Shown here one piece after another: positions 1 through 59,236 of a stretch of DNA of 64,000 nt. Positions within the stretch are counted from its first letter, which is position 1. Every line of letters starts with the position of its first letter. The position numbers and the translations under genes were made by a program. A model generated the notes under the pieces. The model ran no database searches and was not told the DNA's origin. It was given only the letters and a program-made list of their open reading frames with translations. The stretch comes from a bacterium (lineage in GTDB: Bacteria > Patescibacteriota > Minisyncoccia > JAHIHE01), in contig JAUYBG010000010.1 of the NCBI GenBank assembly GCA_030693205.1, positions 130,059 to 194,058 of the forward strand, read 5' to 3'.

Positions 1-1153
1 TGAAATAAATTTTGAAAAAGAACTTCTTGAAATGTCATTGCAGCTCAAAAACAGGAATTACCGGCTTGGAAAATATACTTGTTTTGCCATCACTGATCCC
101 AAAATCCGCGAGGTTTGGGCGGCTGACTTCCGCGACCGAATCATCCACCATTTGCTTGTCGGCTATCTTGAGCCTATTTGGGAGAAAAAATTCATTTTCC
201 ATTCCTACGCTTGCCGTAAAGAAAAAGGCGCGCATAAAGCTATAAAAAATCTCAGGCAAGCACTTAATATTCAATCGCCGAATATCCATAAATTATGGTA
301 TTTAAAAATAGACATAGAAAGTTTTTTTATGAGCATTAATAAATTCGTCCTTTTCTCGCTCGTTCAAAAACATATCAATAATACCGATATTTTATGGCTC
401 TCCAAGCTTATTATTTTCCAGAATCCAACCGACAATTATCTCATCAAGGGAGACAGAAAAATCCTAGCCTCTATTCCAAAAAACAAATCTTTTTTTCATG
501 CCCCGCCAAGCAACGGACTGCCTATTGGCAATTACACTTCACAATTTTTCGCCAATGTTTATCTCAATGAAGCCGATCAATTTATAAAACATAATCTTAA
601 ATGCCGCCATTATTTCCGCTATATGGATGATTTCTTGCTGCTTCACGAGGACAAAAATATTCTCCTGAAATGGCGAGATAAAATTTCAAATTTTCTTGAA
701 AACCGGCTAAAACTCACGCTTCATCCTAAAAAACAGTTTCTTCAGCCAGTTTCGCGCGGCATTGATTTTCTCGGTTATATCGTAAAACCCGATTATATTC
801 TCAGCCGAAGAAGAATTATCGCTAATTTCAAAAAGAAACTGCATTATTTCAATAAACTGCTGAATAATGATGCCGAGCCTTGGCCAGAAAAACAAAATTT
901 TCAACCCGCTCTACCCTTAATATTCCATAATCAAACGCCGGCTTTGGAATTTATCCTTGAAACGCAGGCAACTATCAATTCTTATTACGGACATTTCAAG
1001 CATGCCAATTGCTCATATCTTCGGAAAAATCTCTGCCAAAAATATTTTAAAGAGCTGAATAACTTTCTGGATCCTGCTGATAAAACTTTTTCATCTTTCA
1101 TTATCAACCCCGCAATCAAAAAGTTCTACCAAGAAAAAAATAAAGAATATTAA
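1..1153 (+). CDS. Diversity-generating retroelement (DGR) reverse transcriptase, 5'-partial (ORF open to window start)
   Basis: Translation carries RT motifs FRDRIIHHLL, the DGR-specific LPIGNYTSQFFANVY (IGxxxSQ replacing the group II QGxxxSP), catalytic YMDDF, and VSRGIDFLGY. Aligns colinearly with Bordetella phage bRT from about residue 58, and no stop codon in frame back to position 2, so the N-terminus lies outside the window. Stop TAA at 1151-1153. Confidence 0.85.
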   Translation, partial: EINFEKELLEMSLQLKNRNYRLGKYTCFAITDPKIREVWAADFRDRIIHHLLVGYLEPIWEKKFIFHSYACRKEKGAHKAIKNLRQALNIQSPNIHKLWYLKIDIESFFMSINKFVLFSLVQKHINNTDILWLSKLIIFQNPTDNYLIKGDRKILASIPKNKSFFHAPPSNGLPIGNYTSQFFANVYLNEADQFIKHNLKCRHYFRYMDDFLLLHEDKNILLKWRDKISNFLENRLKLTLHPKKQFLQPVSRGIDFLGYIVKPDYILSRRRIIANFKKKLHYFNKLLNNDAEPWPEKQNFQPALPLIFHNQTPALEFILETQATINSYYGHFKHANCSYLRKNLCQKYFKELNNFLDPADKTFSSFIINPAIKKFYQEKNKEY

Positions 1154-1268
1154 CGGACGGAAGACAGCGCGAAATCTGTTGCTATTGTTGACATTATTAT
1201 TATTGAAGTTGGAACAGGCGTTATTGCCCGCTATCCTCGCATTATTGTTGTTGTGCTGCTCCGAAAGC
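1154..1268 (-). repeat. DGR template repeat (TR), sense strand is minus
   Basis: 115-bp near-copy of 1862-1976. It differs at 13 positions; at 12 of them the TR base is A on the minus strand (T on plus). Read in the target frame it encodes an Asn-rich peptide (AAC/AAT codons) versus Tyr/Leu/Gly/Ser/Lys in the VR. Begins immediately after the RT stop codon. Confidence 0.8.
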
Positions 1269-1442
1269 AAATGTCCGTCCACTTGCTAAAATCCGGAAGC
1301 CATCGCAATAGTGTGCGTAGGCCGCCTGTCATATATCCTGTCTTCTGCATAAAACAGAGGAATGGACTAGAATCTCCATTTTCCACCCTCTCCCTTTTGC
1401 CGTGGCAAAAAAGGACTCTGGCAGGAATAGAATAATCATAAT

Positions 1443-1793
1443 TTATTGATTAGCCCATTTCTGCCAGCCACCAAGCTGTTTCCCTATTTCTTCTATTTTT
1501 TCATTGAACACCCCCAATTGCCCTCTGCTTATAACTTTCAAATCAAACGCCAAACGCAGATGAATCCTCAGTACTTCTTTTTTATAATCTATCTCGGCTA
1601 TTCCTGATAATTTTTCTTTCCCCGTCATCGCGTTGGTTTTCATCACCAAGTCCAAAATTCCATGAGCGGTATTTTTCAAGCGCTCTCCCAGCGTATATTT
1701 ATATTCTTTGCTGAAATTTTTTGTTGTTTTGTATATTTCCAGCGTGAGAATATACGCAGATTGAAATATGGATATATGATCATAACGCGCCAT
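1443..1793 (-). CDS. avd: Avd (accessory variability determinant), four-helix-bundle / 23S rRNA IVS-protein family
   Basis: 116 aa, lies between the VR and TR in the same orientation. Similar to bAvd (YDHISIF.., LRIHLRLAFDLK, GKQLGGWQKW matching YDQMLIV.., LRFWLRFLAGIQ, GRILGSWI). Confidence 0.75.
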   Translation of the reverse strand: MARYDHISIFQSAYILTLEIYKTTKNFSKEYKYTLGERLKNTAHGILDLVMKTNAMTGKEKLSGIAEIDYKKEVLRIHLRLAFDLKVISRGQLGVFNEKIEEIGKQLGGWQKWANQ

Positions 1794-1858
1794 AAAATTA
1801 AATCAAATAATTCAAATATCCAAATTGTCTAATCATCAAATTGGAAAATGGAGAAAAC

Positions 1859-3523
1859 TTACGGACGGAAGACAGCGCGAAATCTGCTGCTACCGTAGAC
1901 AAGATTATTATTGAAGTAGGAACAGGCGTTATAGCCCGCTATCCTCGCACCCTTGTAGTAGTGCTGCTCCGAAAGCCATTCCCAAGAACCGCTATTAGAC
2001 AAATCTAAAAATTCATCAGTCCTGCCAACTTGCCCGCCATAATTACCATAGGTTTTATCAGCCGTGTATGCCCCTATAGTACTTTCATAATTAGAACCGC
2101 CGTCTTTATATCCGCAAAATCCGAAAAAATCGCTAGCCGTAGGCAATCTCGTGCCTTTCCAATTATTCAAAACCTCCTGTGTTAGCGGACCATTATTACC
2201 GTTTAGTTGGTCGTCAACATCTCCATCAACGATGGTTGTCGGGTTGTAAGTCGCATGCGGAACAAGATAAATAATCGCGAATGTTGAACCAATAGCCGGA
2301 TCCCCGCCTGTCCAGCCAGCCACAGTGAGCGCCGTTGCCGTATTGCTTTCAATTCGACCATAACTGCCCAAACCTGTACCACCAGTAATAAGCGCTTTTT
2401 GCCCAACCCATGCATTGGCGTTTAAAGAAAGTGAGGAGTCGGTTATGCTTGTTGCGTTTGCCGCCGTGGCTGTGCTAACCTTGACCGCGCGACTTGCTTC
2501 AGTGGGTAGCAAATCTCGGATGCCGTCATAGCAATCAGCGGTAGCCAGAGCAATAGCGCCGACGCCGACTTGCGCCGAAGTTGGATAAGACCCCCAACTG
2601 GGCGCGCCACTTGGAAAACTGCCGGCGCATGTCCAGTCACCTATCCATGAATTATCATAAAGAGCAAAACCGTCATCTTCAACAGCAAAAACCGAAGTGG
2701 CATCCGGCGTGCCGCAATTTGAAGCATAGGCGGAAGAAAGCCACGAACCATACACGGTAATAGTATCAGCGGTATTTAATTTGACAACGCCCCAGCAGTT
2801 GATAGCGGTGCCGGCAGTGATTTTAACAATCATATTCGCGTAAGCGTTCGCCGTCCAAACCGCGCCTGTTTTAATAATGGAATCTGCCGAACCGCCAGTC
2901 GCCGCCTGAGCGGTAATAGGCGTTGAGCCAATCTGCTCTGAACCATTCCAAGATAATGAAGTGACAGCTGATGCCCGAACACAAACACCGTCTTCGGGAT
3001 CAATGGTGTCGCCATCGCCGTTACCATCTTCAAACCAGTACCAAGCCGGGTTCTGGGCGTCGCAGGCGGCTTGAGTTATGCTAGTGCCAGACCATGCTGT
3101 GCCCGGATAGCCGGAATAAGCGCCTGTGGAAGAAACGCCAAAGGCCGTTCCTTTTTTAACCGTTGCTGTTGATAAATTATCAGCATTATAAGTGCCGGCT
3201 ACGCCTAGATATGATGTTCCGAGTTTGACAGTGTTGTCGACAATAGTGGGAATTGAATTATAAATTTCGGTCAAAGTGCGGCCGGTTCCTTCCAAGTTAT
3301 CCGAAAAAGCAAAACTATGACCGCCTTCAGTTGCCGTGGCATTAGTAGTTAGCCGCGTGTAAATTTCTGAAATAGTATAAAATTTCGCGGCAGGTTCGCT
3401 TCCGCCCGATGGCGGAGTAATAGTGCCGGCTTTAACAACCATAGAAATAATCAAAATCGAAATTAAAACGGTTAATCCGCTTTTAAACCCGCTGGATAAA
3501 TTTTGTTTATTAAAAATTCTCAT
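1859..3523 (-). CDS. DGR variable (target) protein, secreted/surface Thr-Gly-Ala-rich protein with C-terminal VR
   Basis: 554 aa with an N-terminal signal anchor. The last ~38 aa (EQHYYKGARIAGYNACSYFNNNLVYGSSRFRAVFRP) are encoded by the VR. Coding GC is visibly higher (about 50-58%) than the surrounding DNA. Confidence 0.8.
   Translation of the reverse strand: MRIFNKQNLSSGFKSGLTVLISILIISMVVKAGTITPPSGGSEPAAKFYTISEIYTRLTTNATATEGGHSFAFSDNLEGTGRTLTEIYNSIPTIVDNTVKLGTSYLGVAGTYNADNLSTATVKKGTAFGVSSTGAYSGYPGTAWSGTSITQAACDAQNPAWYWFEDGNGDGDTIDPEDGVCVRASAVTSLSWNGSEQIGSTPITAQAATGGSADSIIKTGAVWTANAYANMIVKITAGTAINCWGVVKLNTADTITVYGSWLSSAYASNCGTPDATSVFAVEDDGFALYDNSWIGDWTCAGSFPSGAPSWGSYPTSAQVGVGAIALATADCYDGIRDLLPTEASRAVKVSTATAANATSITDSSLSLNANAWVGQKALITGGTGLGSYGRIESNTATALTVAGWTGGDPAIGSTFAIIYLVPHATYNPTTIVDGDVDDQLNGNNGPLTQEVLNNWKGTRLPTASDFFGFCGYKDGGSNYESTIGAYTADKTYGNYGGQVGRTDEFLDLSNSGSWEWLSEQHYYKGARIAGYNACSYFNNNLVYGSSRFRAVFRP
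1862..1976 (-). repeat. DGR variable repeat (VR) at the 3' end of the target gene
   Basis: Homologous to the TR at 1154-1268, with adenine-specific differences. The 25-bp 3' end (cggacggaagacagcgcgaaatctg on plus) is identical in TR and VR and is a candidate IMH-like region. Confidence 0.8.
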
Positions 3524-3642
3524 AGTTTTATTATTAAACCGATTAATTAAAGCATAGATTTAAAAAATCAAAAAAGCGTCATAAAAAAGACGCTATATTG
3601 ATGAGTAATTTGAAAAAGATAAAACTCGGCGAGCCTTGTTTA

Positions 3643-3659
3643 CTCTCTCTCTCTCTCTC
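3643..3659. repeat. (CT)8 dinucleotide simple sequence repeat upstream of the DGR target gene
   Basis: ctctctctctctctctc seen directly in the intergenic region 120-135 bp upstream of the target start codon. Confidence 0.9.
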
Positions 3660-3782
3660 GTAATTCAGCCCTGCGGCTGAAATATATTTATAGTTTTGTT
3701 TAATCATAATTATATTATAGCATAATAAAAACTTAATGCAAAAGCCAAAATTGAAAATTCATGATTATTGAACCCGGAATAC

Positions 3783-3829
3783 GCTCTTATTATACCGCTT
3801 ATACCGCCAAACTGGCTTGCTTTCAAACT
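3783..3829. repeat. Direct repeat copy 1 (gctcttattataccg...aaactggcttgctttcaaact) flanking the TA module
   Basis: Matches 4902-4939 apart from an 11-bp indel. Weaker similarity extends about 20 bp further upstream in both copies. Confidence 0.7.
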
Positions 3830-3856
3830 TGATCCACCCGCGCCAATTCTACCACC

Positions 3857-4258
3857 TTAAAATAATTTTTGTCCGGCGTTTAAATATTCCTCCACCTGCA
3901 AAACAATTTTTTTCAGCCATTCTTTATAACTCAAAGACTCTTTTCTCGTAATCAAAACGCCTCCGCTATACAAATCAAAATTTCTTTTCTTTCTCATTTC
4001 ATTGCCCATCGCGAAAATATCTTCATCGCCTAAATATTCGGATAATTTTTTAACTAAATCAATATGATGCCCGACCCGCGACCTGACTCTCAAATTATTC
4101 TTGGCGCAGACCGCAATCGCGATTTTAAGCAAACTATCATAGGAAAATTTAAAAATAATCTCAGGAATATCCGAATCGCGGGCAATTTTAAAATCCTTGA
4201 GCGCCGAATTAAAATAATTTTCAATTTGCCTATCGGTAAATTCTTGTTTTTTAAACAT
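3857..4258 (-). CDS. HEPN-domain protein (toxin partner of MNT)
   Basis: 133 aa, immediately downstream of the nucleotidyltransferase gene with a 2-bp gap. Conserved HEPN-like R(x)4-6H-type region (RVRSRVGHH). Confidence 0.65.
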   Translation of the reverse strand: MFKKQEFTDRQIENYFNSALKDFKIARDSDIPEIIFKFSYDSLLKIAIAVCAKNNLRVRSRVGHHIDLVKKLSEYLGDEDIFAMGNEMRKKRNFDLYSGGVLITRKESLSYKEWLKKIVLQVEEYLNAGQKLF

Positions 4259-4260
4259 AT

Positions 4261-4872
4261 TTATAAAATTTTAACTGCTTTACCGCTAAAAATATTAGTT
4301 ATAAATTCATCTTTATTTTTTTTCCTTTTGGCAAATTCCTCTTCGGTTAAATCGACAACATTAATCTCGCGCCTGATTTTTTCCTGTACTGGCAGCAGCG
4401 CTTTTGCCGCTTCCATAACCTGATGATCGCCGATTATCAAAACATCAATATCGCTTTCCGCTTCAAAATCTCCTTTGGCGTATGAACCGAAAATATAAGC
4501 TTCTTTTATTCCTTTAATTTTCTTTAAGCTACAGGCAATCATATCTCCCAATCCGTATTTCAATTCAAAAGCTTTTTTTACTTCTTTAAGCAAAGGGTAA
4601 TTCTTGTTGATAAAATAATACCTTTGCTCGCCTGAAAATTCCGAGCTTAAAATTCCCTCTTTTTCCAATTTTTGCAGTTTTCGGCTTAAATTTCCCGGGT
4701 CAGCTTCCAAAATTCGCGCCAGTTCGTTGATATAATTTTTCTTGCTCGGATTTATAAAAAAATATCTTAGCGCCTTAATGGTAATTTCTGATTTAAGGTT
4801 AAACATATTATTATAATTCTTATTGTTAATTCTTACAATAGTTATTGTAGCATTATACAATAATTTAATCAA
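4261..4872 (-). CDS. Winged-HTH + minimal nucleotidyltransferase (MNT) protein, antitoxin partner
   Basis: N-terminal ArsR-like wHTH (INELARILEADPGNLSRKLQKLEKEGIL). NTase motif GSYAKGDFEAESDIDVLI. Real start is probably the internal Met near 4806. Confidence 0.75.
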   Translation of the reverse strand: MIKLLYNATITIVRINNKNYNNMFNLKSEITIKALRYFFINPSKKNYINELARILEADPGNLSRKLQKLEKEGILSSEFSGEQRYYFINKNYPLLKEVKKAFELKYGLGDMIACSLKKIKGIKEAYIFGSYAKGDFEAESDIDVLIIGDHQVMEAAKALLPVQEKIRREINVVDLTEEEFAKRKKNKDEFITNIFSGKAVKIL

Positions 4873-9546: not shown

Positions 9547-9610
9547 ACAGTTTTATTATGAAATATTACCTCCAAAACGGCAATTACCATTAATTCCCGA
9601 TAAGCAATGA

Positions 9611-10157
9611 TCAAAGCAAGTCTATAAGCCGAGTTCTGTCCTCCGCCTTTTGCAAAACGGATGGATAGTAATCTATCTAGCCCCAAAATTGCTCATGGGG
9701 TCAAGCGAGCTACTTTTAATTCGCGCGAAGCGCGAACTTTGCTCTTGCTCCTGACAGGGTTTACCATCGCTTTACCGTTGCCGGTAAGGAAAAAATGTGG
9801 CATTTCTTGCGAAAAACCTCATTTAACTTTTCACCTTTTGCCAATGCCCTGCAACGGAAGCTCCAAGCACCAAATCCCAAATCCCAAACAAATCACAAAT
9901 CTCATTTTCAAAACCAAATTATTTGGAGTTTGAATTTTTGTGCTTTGGAATTTGTTTGAAATTTGAAAATTGGGTTTTGGAATTTCCAGTGCAAGGCACT
10001 GGTTAGTATTGTCTCTGTGGCACTTTCCCTAAGGTTTCCCTTGGTCGACGTTATCGACTGTCATTTTTACATCCGTTAAAAAACGAATGCAGGAGCTCGG
10101 ACTTTCCTCCCCTCATCTTTATAAAAAAGCGAGGGGTAACTATCCAACTTGCTTTAA
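9611..10157 (-). ncRNA. rnpB: RNase P RNA (bacterial type A) with an AT-rich expansion
   Basis: Minus strand shows P4 5' strand GGAGGAAAGTCCGAGCTCC and the GTGCCACAGAGACAATAC motif (E. coli GTGCAACAGAGAGCAAAC). 3' P4 strand ACAGAACTCGGCTTATA. P1 helix formed by AAAGCAAGT (5') and ACTTGCTTT (3'). About 545 nt because of an internal AT-rich low-complexity insertion (plus 9870-9990). Confidence 0.75.
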
Positions 10158-51102: not shown

Positions 51103-51285
51103 TTAGTGGACCTAGACAGAATCGAACTGTCGTCTCCGCAATGCGAATGCGGCGTCTTACCACTGGACTATAGGCCCAAATCCGCTGAAAGCGGATTAAC
51201 CACATAACCAATAACCATAACTAATAACAATTTGGTTATCGGTTATAAGTTATCGATTATTAGTTATTTTGGTCGCAATTGCTGA
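51103..51285. repeat. Direct repeat A (~183 bp) containing tRNA-Ala and its 5' spacer hairpin; left boundary of the island
   Basis: About 97% identical to 59059-59236, with 4-5 differences that are partly compensatory within the spacer palindrome. Confidence 0.85.
51107..51177 (-). tRNA. tRNA-Ala (CGC), copy A
   Basis: Acceptor GGGCCTA with G3:U70, anticodon loop TTCGCAT, T-loop TTCGATT. No encoded CCA. Confidence 0.85.
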
Positions 51286-59058: not shown

Positions 59059-59236
59059 TTTAGTGGACCTAGACAGAATCGAACTGTCGTCTCCGCAATG
59101 CGAATGCGGCGTCTTACCACTGGACTATAGGCCCAAATCCGCTGAAAGCGGATTAACCACATAACCAATAACTCATAACTAATAACAATTTGATTATCGG
59201 TTATGAGTTATCGATTATTAGTTATTTTGGTCGGGG
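59059..59236. repeat. Direct repeat B containing tRNA-Ala copy B and the spacer hairpin, abutting the tRNA-Pro 3' end
   Basis: See 51103-51285. Confidence 0.85.
59064..59134 (-). tRNA. tRNA-Ala (CGC), copy B (identical to copy A)
   Basis: Same sequence as 51107-51177. Confidence 0.85.

Follow-up and report, generated by a model that had tools for sequence, protein, structure and literature searches.

The question raised by this locus is how a DGR could prime and direct its cDNA when its TR ends at the stop codon of the reverse transcriptase (RT) gene, so that no BPP-1-type spacer of about 140 nt lies immediately downstream of the TR. The locus lies at the left edge of the window, the 64 kb stretch of DNA that we analysed, and it is a DGR: the TR and VR differ specifically at adenines, the VR is placed inside a protein-coding target with the TR adenines at codon positions 1 and 2, the RT carries the motifs of the DGR lineage, and an Avd, which is present in most DGRs, is encoded as well. 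It is a known kind of element in a new variant of RNA and gene order, and to judge from its sequence it is an intact, apparently working DGR by which a tiny, uncultured CPR bacterium diversifies one of its surface proteins at the tip. The preliminary description of this DNA had interpreted it in the same way, from the RT of DGR type, the Avd, and a TR/VR pair with A-specific differences whose VR closes an ORF, and had called the DGR complete. All parts are indeed present; however, the RT ORF continues beyond the left edge of the window, and therefore the cassette is complete in its parts and not in its sequence.

On the minus strand the order is target, avd, a structured RNA named X, and TR, whereas the RT gene is encoded on the opposite strand and converges on the TR, which its stop codon abuts (Table 1). 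The inverted RT, the absent TR-RT spacer and the 174-nt structured RNA between avd and TR had gone without mention in the preliminary description. The RT (Pfam RVT_1, 1.4e-20) is cut at its N-terminus by the window edge, with about 40 aa outside. Its translation contains LPIGNYTSQ and YMDD and aligns with the BPP-1 bRT, from bRT residue 46, at 32% identity; the DGR-specific IGxxxSQ motif claimed earlier is present as IGNYTSQ and aligned with the bRT motif, and retron and Drt models match the protein only weakly. The assignment of avd was also borne out by a Pfam bAvd match above its cutoff, and the NCBIfam model DivGenRetAVD matched at 5.5e-21 (74.8 bits, about 5 bits under its 80-bit cutoff).

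Table 1. Features of the DGR locus and of the putative leader upstream of its target (positions in the window).
Feature	Position	Strand	Remarks
Reverse transcriptase gene	2-1153	+	383 codons and stop codon 1151-1153; ORF open to window edge
P5 3' strand (UCUUUAU)	1140-1146	-	IMH*-like box in TR 3' flank; pairs with X 1373-1379
TR	1153-1268	-	14 AAY codons, 37 adenines
X	1269-1442	-	structured non-coding RNA between avd stop and TR, 174 nt; RNAalifold consensus
P2 3' strand (GGACGGAC)	1273-1280	-	directly 5' of TR; 7 of 8 P2 pairs changed on both sides in clade
P4 hairpin	1295-1323	-	internal loop UAC / GAUGG; boundaries approximate
P3 hairpin	1341-1358	-	after P2 5' strand, then A-rich stretch; boundaries approximate
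P2 5' strand (GUCCAUUC)	1360-1367	-	putative stop duplex strand; consensus fold
Unpaired A, invariant	1368	-	between P5 and P2; column A63, alignment A1
P5 5' strand (AUGGAGA)	1373-1379	-	putative primer strand; complementary to 1140-1146, perfectly to 1848-1854
P1 hairpin	1391-1415	-	conserved UGCCAGAGU before it; 9 of 11 pairs changed on both sides
P0 pairs	1421-1422 with 1385-1386	-	close P1; consensus fold
avd, accessory variability determinant	1443-1793	-	116 aa; Pfam bAvd 3.3e-19
IMH-like box (UCUCCAU)	1848-1854	-	VR 3' flank; position homologous to 1140-1146; perfect complement of X primer strand
Target gene	1859-3523	-	554 aa; N-terminal signal/anchor helix, N-module, middle domain, C-terminal VR domain
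VR	1861-1976	-	last 38 codons of target
Target-operon leader, putative	3575-3742	-	pattern matches only
Terminator-like hairpin and U run, putative	3594-3575	-	pattern match
(GA)8.5 tract in putative leader	3643-3659	-	pattern match
Leader hairpin, putative	3664-3681	-	pattern match
Sigma70-like promoter, putative	3742-3714	-	pattern match, in target-operon leader

Judged by its RT sequence, the element is a member of a clade specific to Patescibacteria (CPR). All of the 30+ loci with an RT identity of at least 46% share the layout of target, avd, X and TR with a converging RT, and their TR is antisense to and immediately downstream of the RT; the loci with an RT identity of 40% or less all have the canonical same-strand order. 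The gap between avd and TR measures 170-377 nt in every clade member. No spacer follows the TR: what lies 3' of it is the RT coding sequence in antisense, which shows no conservation from one subclade to the next. RT coding sequence starts at the first base downstream of the TR in the window and in L001, L002 and L007, and a GC-rich hairpin is found between the TR and the RT stop in L004, L005, L006 and L010. A search of IMG/VR found no clade members.

The host group is that of the published CPR/Patescibacteria DGRs (the CPR set of Wu et al., 2018; DGR clade 2 of Roux et al., 2021), and the element resembles them in being cellular and not viral and in having a target without recognisable domains, with a VR of the classes termed "unknown VRs". 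Several of the relatives were found in the same Rifle/Crystal Geyser genome sets, and therefore the RT clade has almost certainly been catalogued already. DGRs of CPR/Patescibacteria, again the same host group, are reportedly also the subject of a 2017 paper by Paul et al. The gene order differs: the dominant CPR architecture, B3, is TR-(avd)-RT and B1 is avd-TR-RT (Wu et al., 2018), whereas our clade has the order target-avd-TR-(RT), with avd and TR on the same strand and the RT inverted downstream, and so conforms to neither. It is known from DGR surveys that the strands of TR and RT may differ. No description of an upstream structured RNA or of its pairings was found in the DGR literature searched.

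X itself is very probably a real structured RNA with the helices P1-P5, read from the TR-sense strand. The consensus has 32 pairs, and 93.3% of the cells pair, compared with 72.2% in shuffles, none of 500 of which reached the observed value; controls with slid partners paired at most 54% of cells. Both sides are changed in 27 pairs, and the pairing holds on 38 distinct sequences, some of which were held out of the seed. There are 65 GU/UG cells and only 10 AC/CA cells, which fixes the strand of X as TR-sense. The covariance model of X matches the window at 1257-1430(-) with 129 bits (E = 7e-30). It has no match in the canonical relatives, which was to be expected anyway, because a permuted order would prevent matching.

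The duplex P5 connects X with the flank of the TR. The final 26 nt of TR and VR are identical and the flanks diverge beyond them, with UCUCCAU following the VR and UCUUUAU following the TR. Both flanks are complementary to one and the same strand of X, the VR flank perfectly, as in an IMH (VR) and a non-identical IMH* (TR). The TR-flank box lies antisense within the final RT codons, with a U7 run after it. P5 as formed by the window sequence is weak (6 Watson-Crick and 2 GU pairs, about -5 kcal/mol), and the single-sequence MFE fold of the window prefers a local hairpin, AAUGGA/UCCAUU, over P5 and P2. Across the clade, the duplexes of the X strand with the cognate TR flank have a mean of -11.4 kcal/mol versus -6.9 kcal/mol when permuted (p < 5e-5), and those with the cognate VR flank -11.4 versus -7.0 kcal/mol. 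The VR-flank duplexes are longer and nearly pure Watson-Crick (143 Watson-Crick and 3 GU pairs) compared with those of the TR flank (111 and 15). Additionally, the primer strand covaries with the box after the target stop codon in 10 distinct lineages. If true, this covariation is comparative support for a cDNA-linked RNA primer that guides homing to the VR.

These elements can be read as parts of one mechanism, by analogy with BPP-1. One minus-strand transcript would carry both X and the TR, and X would be bound by the RT and Avd. Pairing of the X strand with the TR 3' flank in P5 would set A1368, a candidate priming nucleotide by its likeness to A56 of the BPP-1 Sp, beside the template as the primer. 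The TR would then be copied into cDNA from its 3' end towards its 5' end, random bases being placed opposite A, and synthesis would halt at the P2 duplex, which immediately precedes the TR. Because the primer strand is the Watson-Crick complement of the box just after the target stop, and would still be attached to the cDNA, it would guide the cDNA to the VR instead of returning it to the TR. Replacement of the VR would recode up to 14 Asn-templated positions, giving about 15^14 (~3e16) variants. Since the primer and scaffold module lies upstream of the template, such priming would not be a fold-back of downstream RNA.

The DGR of Bordetella phage BPP-1 has the order mtd-avd-TR-Sp-brt. In its RNA Sp47-56 is paired with TR117-129 and A56 is the priming nucleotide, and Sp59-70 forms a duplex with avd369-379, which precedes the TR; then follow a stem-loop, adenosines and a tetraloop-capped Avd-binding stem-loop. 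The elements of X, namely P5, the invariant A and the covarying P2, are found on the strand 5' of the TR and run in the same RNA polarity: a putative primer strand that pairs with the TR 3' region, a candidate priming A, a strand that pairs with sequence upstream of the TR, and stem-loops. P4, which is capped by a UUCG tetraloop in many relatives, is a candidate for the Avd-binding stem-loop, and P3 with the A-rich stretch after it may likewise be compared with this part of the BPP-1 RNA. We infer that the X/TR core corresponds to the BPP-1 core of primer duplex, priming A and stop duplex; we call it circularly permuted because the equivalent of Sp is upstream of the TR and not between TR and RT. 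The resemblance of X to Sp is topological, as no sequence homology between the two could be demonstrated, and we lean towards a functional equivalence of X and Sp in priming, stop and guidance. In BPP-1, too, the primer strand pairs more strongly with the IMH of the VR (-16.7 kcal/mol) than with the IMH* of the TR (-10.1 kcal/mol), and a better fit of the primer to IMH than to IMH* was proposed to set the direction of homing (Naorem, 2017). A C-terminal VR in the target, avd, TR, an IGxxxSQ RT and A-specific mutagenesis are further common features. On the other hand, our element has its scaffold 5' and not 3' of the TR, no TR-RT spacer, an inverted RT gene that abuts the TR, an Avd barely similar in sequence, no GC-rich cruciform after the VR, a target that is not Mtd-like, and a cellular (CPR) host instead of a phage. 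The primer duplex of BPP-1 is inside the annotated TR, whereas here it is 7 nt past the perfectly repeated part, in a region covered by a degenerate repeat. The odds are about even that the RNA of the CPR-clade DGRs represents the BPP-1 RNA in a naturally occurring, circularly permuted form, with the RT inverted onto the TR 3' end and a second, phase-variable layer possible.

One could argue that this DGR uses a conventional RNA, with a spacer located downstream of the TR (antisense to the RT 3' end) or provided in trans, and that X serves otherwise, for instance as the 3' UTR of avd, in processing or termination, or in regulation. Such an arrangement is the sole one characterised experimentally, and both the weak P5 of the window and the GC-rich hairpin between TR and RT stop in some subclades are in its favour. 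However, the variable downstream sequence, which in the window and three other loci is RT coding from its first base, has the short box covarying with X as its only conserved feature, and X possesses two adjacent duplexes, an invariant A and an IMH/IMH*-like asymmetry, as in the BPP-1 primer region. Thus it is not likely, though conceivable, that a conventional RNA serves this DGR, and an intact CPR-clade DGR with X as an upstream scaffold and a BPP-1-like permuted core is probably the best explanation overall.

The upstream scaffold has a parallel in retrons. Retron msr-msd RNA carries a non-coding scaffold 5' of the template on one transcript, and retron priming occurs from an internal purine beside a helix in which both ends of the template region pair with each other. 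The element resembles this in the position of its scaffold and in the proposed internal purine priming beside a helix. It differs from retrons by its RT of the DGR lineage, its Avd, its TR/VR pair, its adenine mutagenesis and its proposed priming base, which is A and not G. The retron analogy for DGR RNA is drawn by Handa.

The repeat itself records the mutagenesis. TR and VR are 116 nt long, lie at a constant offset of 708 nt and differ by 13 mismatches; the preliminary description was right about the repeat and its 13 differences, 12 of them at A, and gave the extent as 115 bp (1154-1268 and 1862-1976). When the mismatches are tabulated by strand, they are not evenly spread: 12 of 13 have A as the minus-strand TR base, although A makes up 37 of the 116 nt (Fisher one-sided p = 2.7e-6), and the single exception is a T>G change (TR 1244 / VR 1952) beside two A>G changes. 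All changes are confined to AAY codons, 10 of 14 being altered, which agrees with the earlier statement that Asn codons AAC and AAT are diversified; the earlier translations were reproduced exactly, that of the TR containing HNNNNARIAGNNACSNFNNNNVNNSNRF and that of the VR HYYKGARIAGYNACSYFNNNLVYGSSRF. A weaker extension of the repeat covers 16 nt more (1137-1152 versus 1845-1860; repeat family D1, 132 nt, 86%), and no further VR-like copies were found within the 64 kb window. Across the clade the TR DNA identity is 78-92%.

Ongoing diversification of the VR is seen in the clade relatives L008/L070 and L006/L063. The contigs of L008 and L070 have 14 mismatches in 11,056 nt, and 14 of 14 are in the VR. 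Among 102 homologues the 14 TR-Asn positions have an entropy of 2.82 bits and the other positions 0.62 (p = 3e-7). The exact protein of our element clusters with no other and is absent from the contig index. The preliminary description had called the organism actively hypervariable, which for this element goes further than its support, an indirect one from intact genes and motifs and from the relatives of the same clade. It could be that the element is a decaying relic, in which the TR/VR differences record past activity and the target is no longer diversified, as the RT 5' end beyond the window, the one mismatch not at A and a (GA)n tract that is out of frame in some relatives' RT genes might indicate. 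However, a relic seems quite improbable, given that all visible ORFs are intact with their catalytic motifs, the TR retains its 14 AAY codons, there is no loss of X, P2 or the box in the VR flank, and the VR is the only place where sister elements vary from sample to sample. The last alternative, that this is no DGR and the repeat is a plain duplication whose copies drifted apart through point mutations, has the existence of a repeat as its only support. It is effectively refuted by the fall of nearly all differences on positions where one copy has A (32% of the repeat), by their confinement to AAY codons, by the RT and Avd that flank the repeat and by the same pattern in >30 related loci.

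The target had been described as a signal-anchored, Thr/Gly/Ala-rich protein, and its composition (G/A/T/S = 11.9/11.4/11.2/9.9%) and a hydrophobic N-terminal helix at residues 15-29 are in line with this. Besides this helix it has an N-module of 110 aa, which is conserved, a middle domain rich in beta structure and in Cys and Asp, and the C-terminal VR domain. [quoted passage not shown] By a medium-confidence model the C-terminal domain may be C-type-lectin-like, in a secreted or anchored protein; a separate model of the C-terminal part alone had pLDDT 56.

A further observation concerns the RT genes of the relatives, which contain a (GA)n tract in their 5' coding region. In some contigs the tract keeps the reading frame, and in others it is off by one repeat unit; of the 5 informative loci, 3 have it out of frame. 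Such a tract may make the mutator RT phase-variable and so add a second layer.

The locus is a diversity-generating retroelement (DGR), as the preliminary description had called it: a reverse transcriptase (RT) with the motif LPIGNYTSQ, an accessory variability determinant (Avd) and an adenine-biased pair of template and variable repeats (TR and VR) are all present. The TR (1153-1268) and the VR (1861-1976) align over 116 nt at a constant offset of 708 nt with 13 mismatches. When the mismatches are tabulated on the minus strand, which encodes the ORF with the VR, the TR shows A and the VR shows C, G or T at 12 of the 13 positions; with adenines at 37 of the 116 TR nucleotides, this bias is significant (Fisher p = 2.7e-6) and bears out the adenine signature described earlier. 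The sole exception is a T>G change at 1244/1952, adjoining two A>G changes. All changes fall within AAY codons and 10 of the 14 AAY codons are recoded, so the proposed diversification of Asn codons holds as well, and the translations previously offered (TR ...HNNNNARIAGNNACSNFNNNNVNNSNRFRAVFRP; target C-terminus ...HYYKGARIAGYNACSYFNNNLVYGSSRFRAVFRP) are confirmed. The repeat continues degenerately for 16 nt further (1137-1152 versus 1845-1860), and the 64 kb window contains no additional VR-like copy.

The RT is 32% identical to bRT of the Bordetella phage BPP-1 DGR (mtd-avd-TR-Sp-brt, Sp being the spacer after the TR) from bRT residue 46 on, with the IGxxxSQ motifs aligned. Because the alignment begins at residue 46, about 40 N-terminal residues of the RT should lie outside the window. 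The earlier wording of a complete cassette was therefore too strong: RT, Avd, TR, VR and target are seen, and the N-terminus of the RT lies beyond the window edge. All of the window's genes, motifs, AAY codons and RNA elements are intact. For the target, Pfam and NCBIfam gave no match up to E = 10; the protein is identical to the NCBI MAG protein Q8N37_02550 ('bacterium') and its homologues come from Patescibacteria, while a contig look-up with the exact target protein found no record. The window also contains an RNase P RNA, six tRNAs and glycosyltransferases, and is chromosomal.

Features of the DGR, its RNA elements and the (GA)n tracts (window coordinates unless a locus is named; L numbers are collected loci of RT relatives)
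Feature	Position	Strand	Remarks
RT	2-1153	+	open to window edge; RVT_1 1.4e-20; LPIGNYTSQ, YMDD
Avd	1443-1793	-	Pfam bAvd 3.3e-19; NCBIfam DivGenRetAVD 5.5e-21, 74.8 bits (cutoff 80)
Target, 554 aa	1859-3523	-	ORF bearing VR at C-terminus
TR-flank box	1140-1146	-	UCUUUAU; inside last RT codons, opposite strand; pairs with two G-U wobbles
VR-flank box	1848-1854	-	UCUCCAU; perfect complement of X strand 1373-1379
P2 3' strand	1273-1280	-	directly 5' of TR; partner 1360-1367
Invariant A	1368	-	before P2 partner strand 1360-1367
P5 candidate primer strand	1373-1379	-	AUGGAGA in window; GGGAAUYNC in most lineages; precedes invariant A
Putative target leader	3575-3742	-	sigma70-like site, hairpin, (GA)n tract, terminator-like hairpin
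(GA)n tracts, window, L001, L003	window 3643-3659; L001 2540-2558, 6889-6901; L003 5881-5909		
(GA)n tracts, other clade loci	L004 4304-4333; L054 208-258; L062 976-994; L005 7993-8011		

In the window, TR, avd and target lie on the minus strand and the RT on the plus strand, its stop codon (1151-1153) touching the TR. From genomes and metagenomes we gathered 127 loci that encode RT relatives, and each was screened for A-biased repeats. Every locus with an RT identity of at least 46% (here called the clade) has RT(+), followed directly downstream by an antisense TR and then by avd(-) and target(-); at identities of 40% or less, all loci show the canonical order on one strand, with VR...TR ahead of the RT. 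The hosts of the clade are Moran-, Doudna-, Falkow-, Portnoy- and Saccharibacteria, plus other Patescibacteria. IMG/VR holds no clade member (best identity 38%), which agrees with the cellular, CPR-restricted DGR clade described by Roux et al. Wu et al. distinguished the orders B1 (avd-TR-RT) and B3 (TR-(avd)-RT; 90% of their CPR set) and reported that TR and RT may sit on different strands. The window order avd-TR-(RT) matches neither B1 nor B3, yet stays inside this recognised variation. Two of the collected loci, L007 (3072-4502, 4669-5952) and L050 (4752-4872, 5742-5862), have two targets each, with one TR and two VRs diversified differently.

The avd-TR gap measures 170-377 nt in every clade member (1269-1442 in the window), and no spacer follows the TR. 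On an alignment (A1) of 16 distinct sequences of this gap region, X, RNAalifold predicts the helices P0/P1, P3 and P4 and a long-range helix P2. These helices contain 93.3% standard pairs compared to 72.2% in column shuffles (0/500 as high) and at most 54% in a control with helix partners slid. Both sides have changed in 27 of the 32 X pairs, and the excess of G-U pairs over A-C mismatches (65 versus 10 cells) indicates an RNA read on the TR-sense strand. The covariance model built from A1 has matches in clade loci only, always antisense to the RT, and also recovers four loci that the seed did not include (L003, L051, L072, L091); its window hit, 1257-1430(-), has 129 bits. Among 38 distinct matches 94.8% of the cells are paired versus 69.3% after shuffling, in an alignment that is model-fitted and so leans towards structure. 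The model has no match in the canonical relatives or elsewhere in the window, thus sequence homology of X to a downstream Sp is neither shown nor excluded. Rfam has no family in 1000-2000, even at E = 10.

P2 is the candidate stop duplex. A pairing of GGACGGA, which precedes the TR, with the TR 3' end (UCCGUCC) was considered and rejected, as it is not kept in relatives; the GGACGGA-bearing segment instead makes P2 with its partner in X. The primer strand and the P2 5' strand of the window can also form a local 6-bp hairpin (AAUGGA...UCCAUU, 1362-1379(-)), which the single-sequence MFE fold favours; similar, shorter hairpins occur in some relatives and are absent in others. This hairpin could be a resting conformation or chance. 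In L055 an insertion of ~300 nt (3546-3841) separates X from the TR and would interrupt P2.

The candidate primer duplex, P5, joins X to the far side of the TR. Across the clade, a box complementary to the X strand sits 1-7 nt past the TR end; the box varies by lineage and the X strand changes with it (for example GGGAAUUAC with GUAAUUCCC, UGGGAUUC with GAAUCCCA, GAGAUGAC with GUCGUCUC and GAGAUAAC with GUUGUCUC). Because this offset varies, P5 was tested free of alignment, by comparing cognate with permuted partners among 10 distinct lineages, in place of a column-wise pair count. The X strand pairs with its cognate TR flank at a mean of -11.4 kcal/mol compared to -6.9 for permuted partners (p < 5e-5), and with the sequence just past the target stop codon at -11.4 compared to -7.0 kcal/mol (p < 5e-5). 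Duplexes with the VR flank exceed those with the TR flank in length and consist almost purely of Watson-Crick pairs (143 Watson-Crick and 3 G-U pairs, against 111 and 15 for the TR flank).

In BPP-1 the TR directly follows avd; a 140-nt Sp, located between TR and brt, provides the primer and wraps around the RT. The cryo-EM study by Handa et al. showed that Sp47-56 pairs with TR117-129 and Sp A56 primes, that the 'stop' duplex begins 2 nt later, between Sp59-70 and avd369-379 ahead of the TR, and that it is followed by a stem-loop, adenosines and an Avd-binding stem-loop with a tetraloop cap. X of the clade agrees in order and polarity: first a strand that pairs with the TR 3' region, next an invariant A, and a strand that pairs with the TR 5' flank. 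P3, an A-rich stretch and P4, often UUCG-capped, come after these. By our calculation, the BPP-1 primer strand pairs with the VR 3' box (IMH) at -16.7 kcal/mol (10 contiguous pairs) versus -10.1 with the TR box (IMH*); this asymmetry of fit was noted by Naorem et al. (2017) and proposed to set the direction of homing. Therefore, the CPR clade reproduces both the BPP-1 core and the IMH/IMH* asymmetry. Its order is a circular permutation of the BPP-1 RNA, with the Sp 3' end joined to the avd strand and the chain opened between TR and Sp. Helices, covariation and asymmetry are directly observed in the clade RNA; by analogy with BPP-1, the cDNA would be primed from A1368, its synthesis would stop at P2, and it would be guided to the VR. 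How the cDNA is integrated has yet to be settled in the field (Naorem 2017). For other DGRs, the search by Handa et al. covered the 40 nt before and the 100 nt after the TR, a span in which the upstream X arrangement would go undetected, and our literature search found no description of such an arrangement.

The arrangement may be older and wider than the inverted-RT clade, as indicated by an outgroup (L079, L080, L082-L086, L088, L089, L105) with RTs ~35% identical and the canonical same-strand order. These loci have no spacer, the RT start codon lying within ~10 nt after the TR, and have a conserved avd-TR region of ~155 nt whose 5' end (UGUCGUUCACAA) can form a 12-bp duplex with the TR 3' flank (UUGUGAAUGACA).

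As a DGR, the window element adds little, since CPR are known as DGR-rich, and its RT clade is probably already catalogued. The distinctive point is the clade-wide inversion of the RT together with a predicted scaffold RNA, supported by covariation, that has moved upstream with the BPP-1 RNA core kept. The clade is thus a natural experiment on DGR RNA: the two-duplex core was kept though the scaffold moved from after to before the template, and this separates essential features of the BPP-1 ribonucleoprotein from incidental connectivity. The covariation of primer strand and VR flank lends independent comparative support to the unproven choice of the VR by the RNA primer that is linked to the cDNA. 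Surveys that seek DGR RNA elements only downstream of the TR would miss the clade.

Activity is seen in relatives of the clade. One element, recovered from different samples as L008 and L070, varies at 14 of 11,056 nt, and all 14 differences lie in the 129-nt VR; L006 and L063 behave in the same way. Among 102 homologous targets the mean entropy is 2.82 bits at the 14 TR-Asn positions versus 0.62 at the other 24 (p = 3e-7). For the window locus itself, the term 'actively' hypervariable used in the preliminary description is overstated.

In the AF2 model of the target (pLDDT 73.9), residues 15-29 form an N-terminal helix, the middle domain is beta-rich and confidently modelled, and pLDDT values in the C-terminal part are 42-84; a C-terminal-only model (pLDDT 56) was too poor for use. 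No match was found with Foldseek for the full-length model against the PDB at E <=0.001, nor in a profile search against PDB sequences. Residues 1-112 (window 3188-3523) are 72-74% identical to the N-termini of two homologues, P0119 and P0120, which end in a different DGR-type domain (Lcl_C/DUF1566, ...VRCVR). The N-terminal 110-aa module resembles a common unit for export and anchoring and appears to be shuffled among variable-protein classes in CPR; residues 1-32 may be either a cleaved signal (VKA|G) or an anchor. Because these two distant homologues share no more than this N-terminal module of 110 aa with the target, their Lcl_C/DUF1566 label was rejected as support for its C-terminal fold. 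Another homologue, P0112, ends in NYEWLSEQINNNNARVAGNNACSNSNNNNVNNGNRFRAVFRP, an all-Asn 'VR', and is thus an undiversified target or a gene called on a TR.

(GA)n tracts of 13-51 nt occur in the clade only, with 0 in 733 kb of non-clade loci. Those upstream of the RT lie within the 5' coding region and read (Arg-Glu)n just ahead of the conserved IFSFxNLLKAY. In L003 and L062 the ATG upstream is in frame; in L001, L004 and L054 it is off by one GA unit. This resembles a slipped-strand switch that turns the RT on and off, and the tracts suggest on/off control of a targeted mutator. A literature search for (GA)n tracts as an RT switch found none. The tracts were rejected as inverted-repeat or mobile-element ends, as only the tract and 'TAAA' are common. 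The window's own tract, (GA)8.5, begins the list of elements ~120 nt before the target ATG and belongs to a putative leader with the region's best sigma70-like site (TTTGCA-17-TATAAT, extended -10, 3742-3714), a hairpin at 3664-3681 and, just ahead of the start codon, a terminator-like hairpin with a U run (3594-3575). Attenuator-type control is a possible role of this leader.

Beside the DGR (3857-4872(-)) is a gene for a 203-aa protein that combines an HTH with an MntA-like nucleotidyltransferase domain (8e-09). The ORF after it, of 133 aa, matches no family; together the two look like a toxin-antitoxin pair of the MNT/HEPN type. The RNase P RNA (9609-10155(-); bacterial class A, 181 bits) must carry large insertions, as it spans 547 nt for a 367-position model. 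tRNA-Ala(CGC) occurs twice (51106-51177 and 59063-59134), on the same strand, 8 kb apart and with equal Rfam scores, which may reflect a local duplication.
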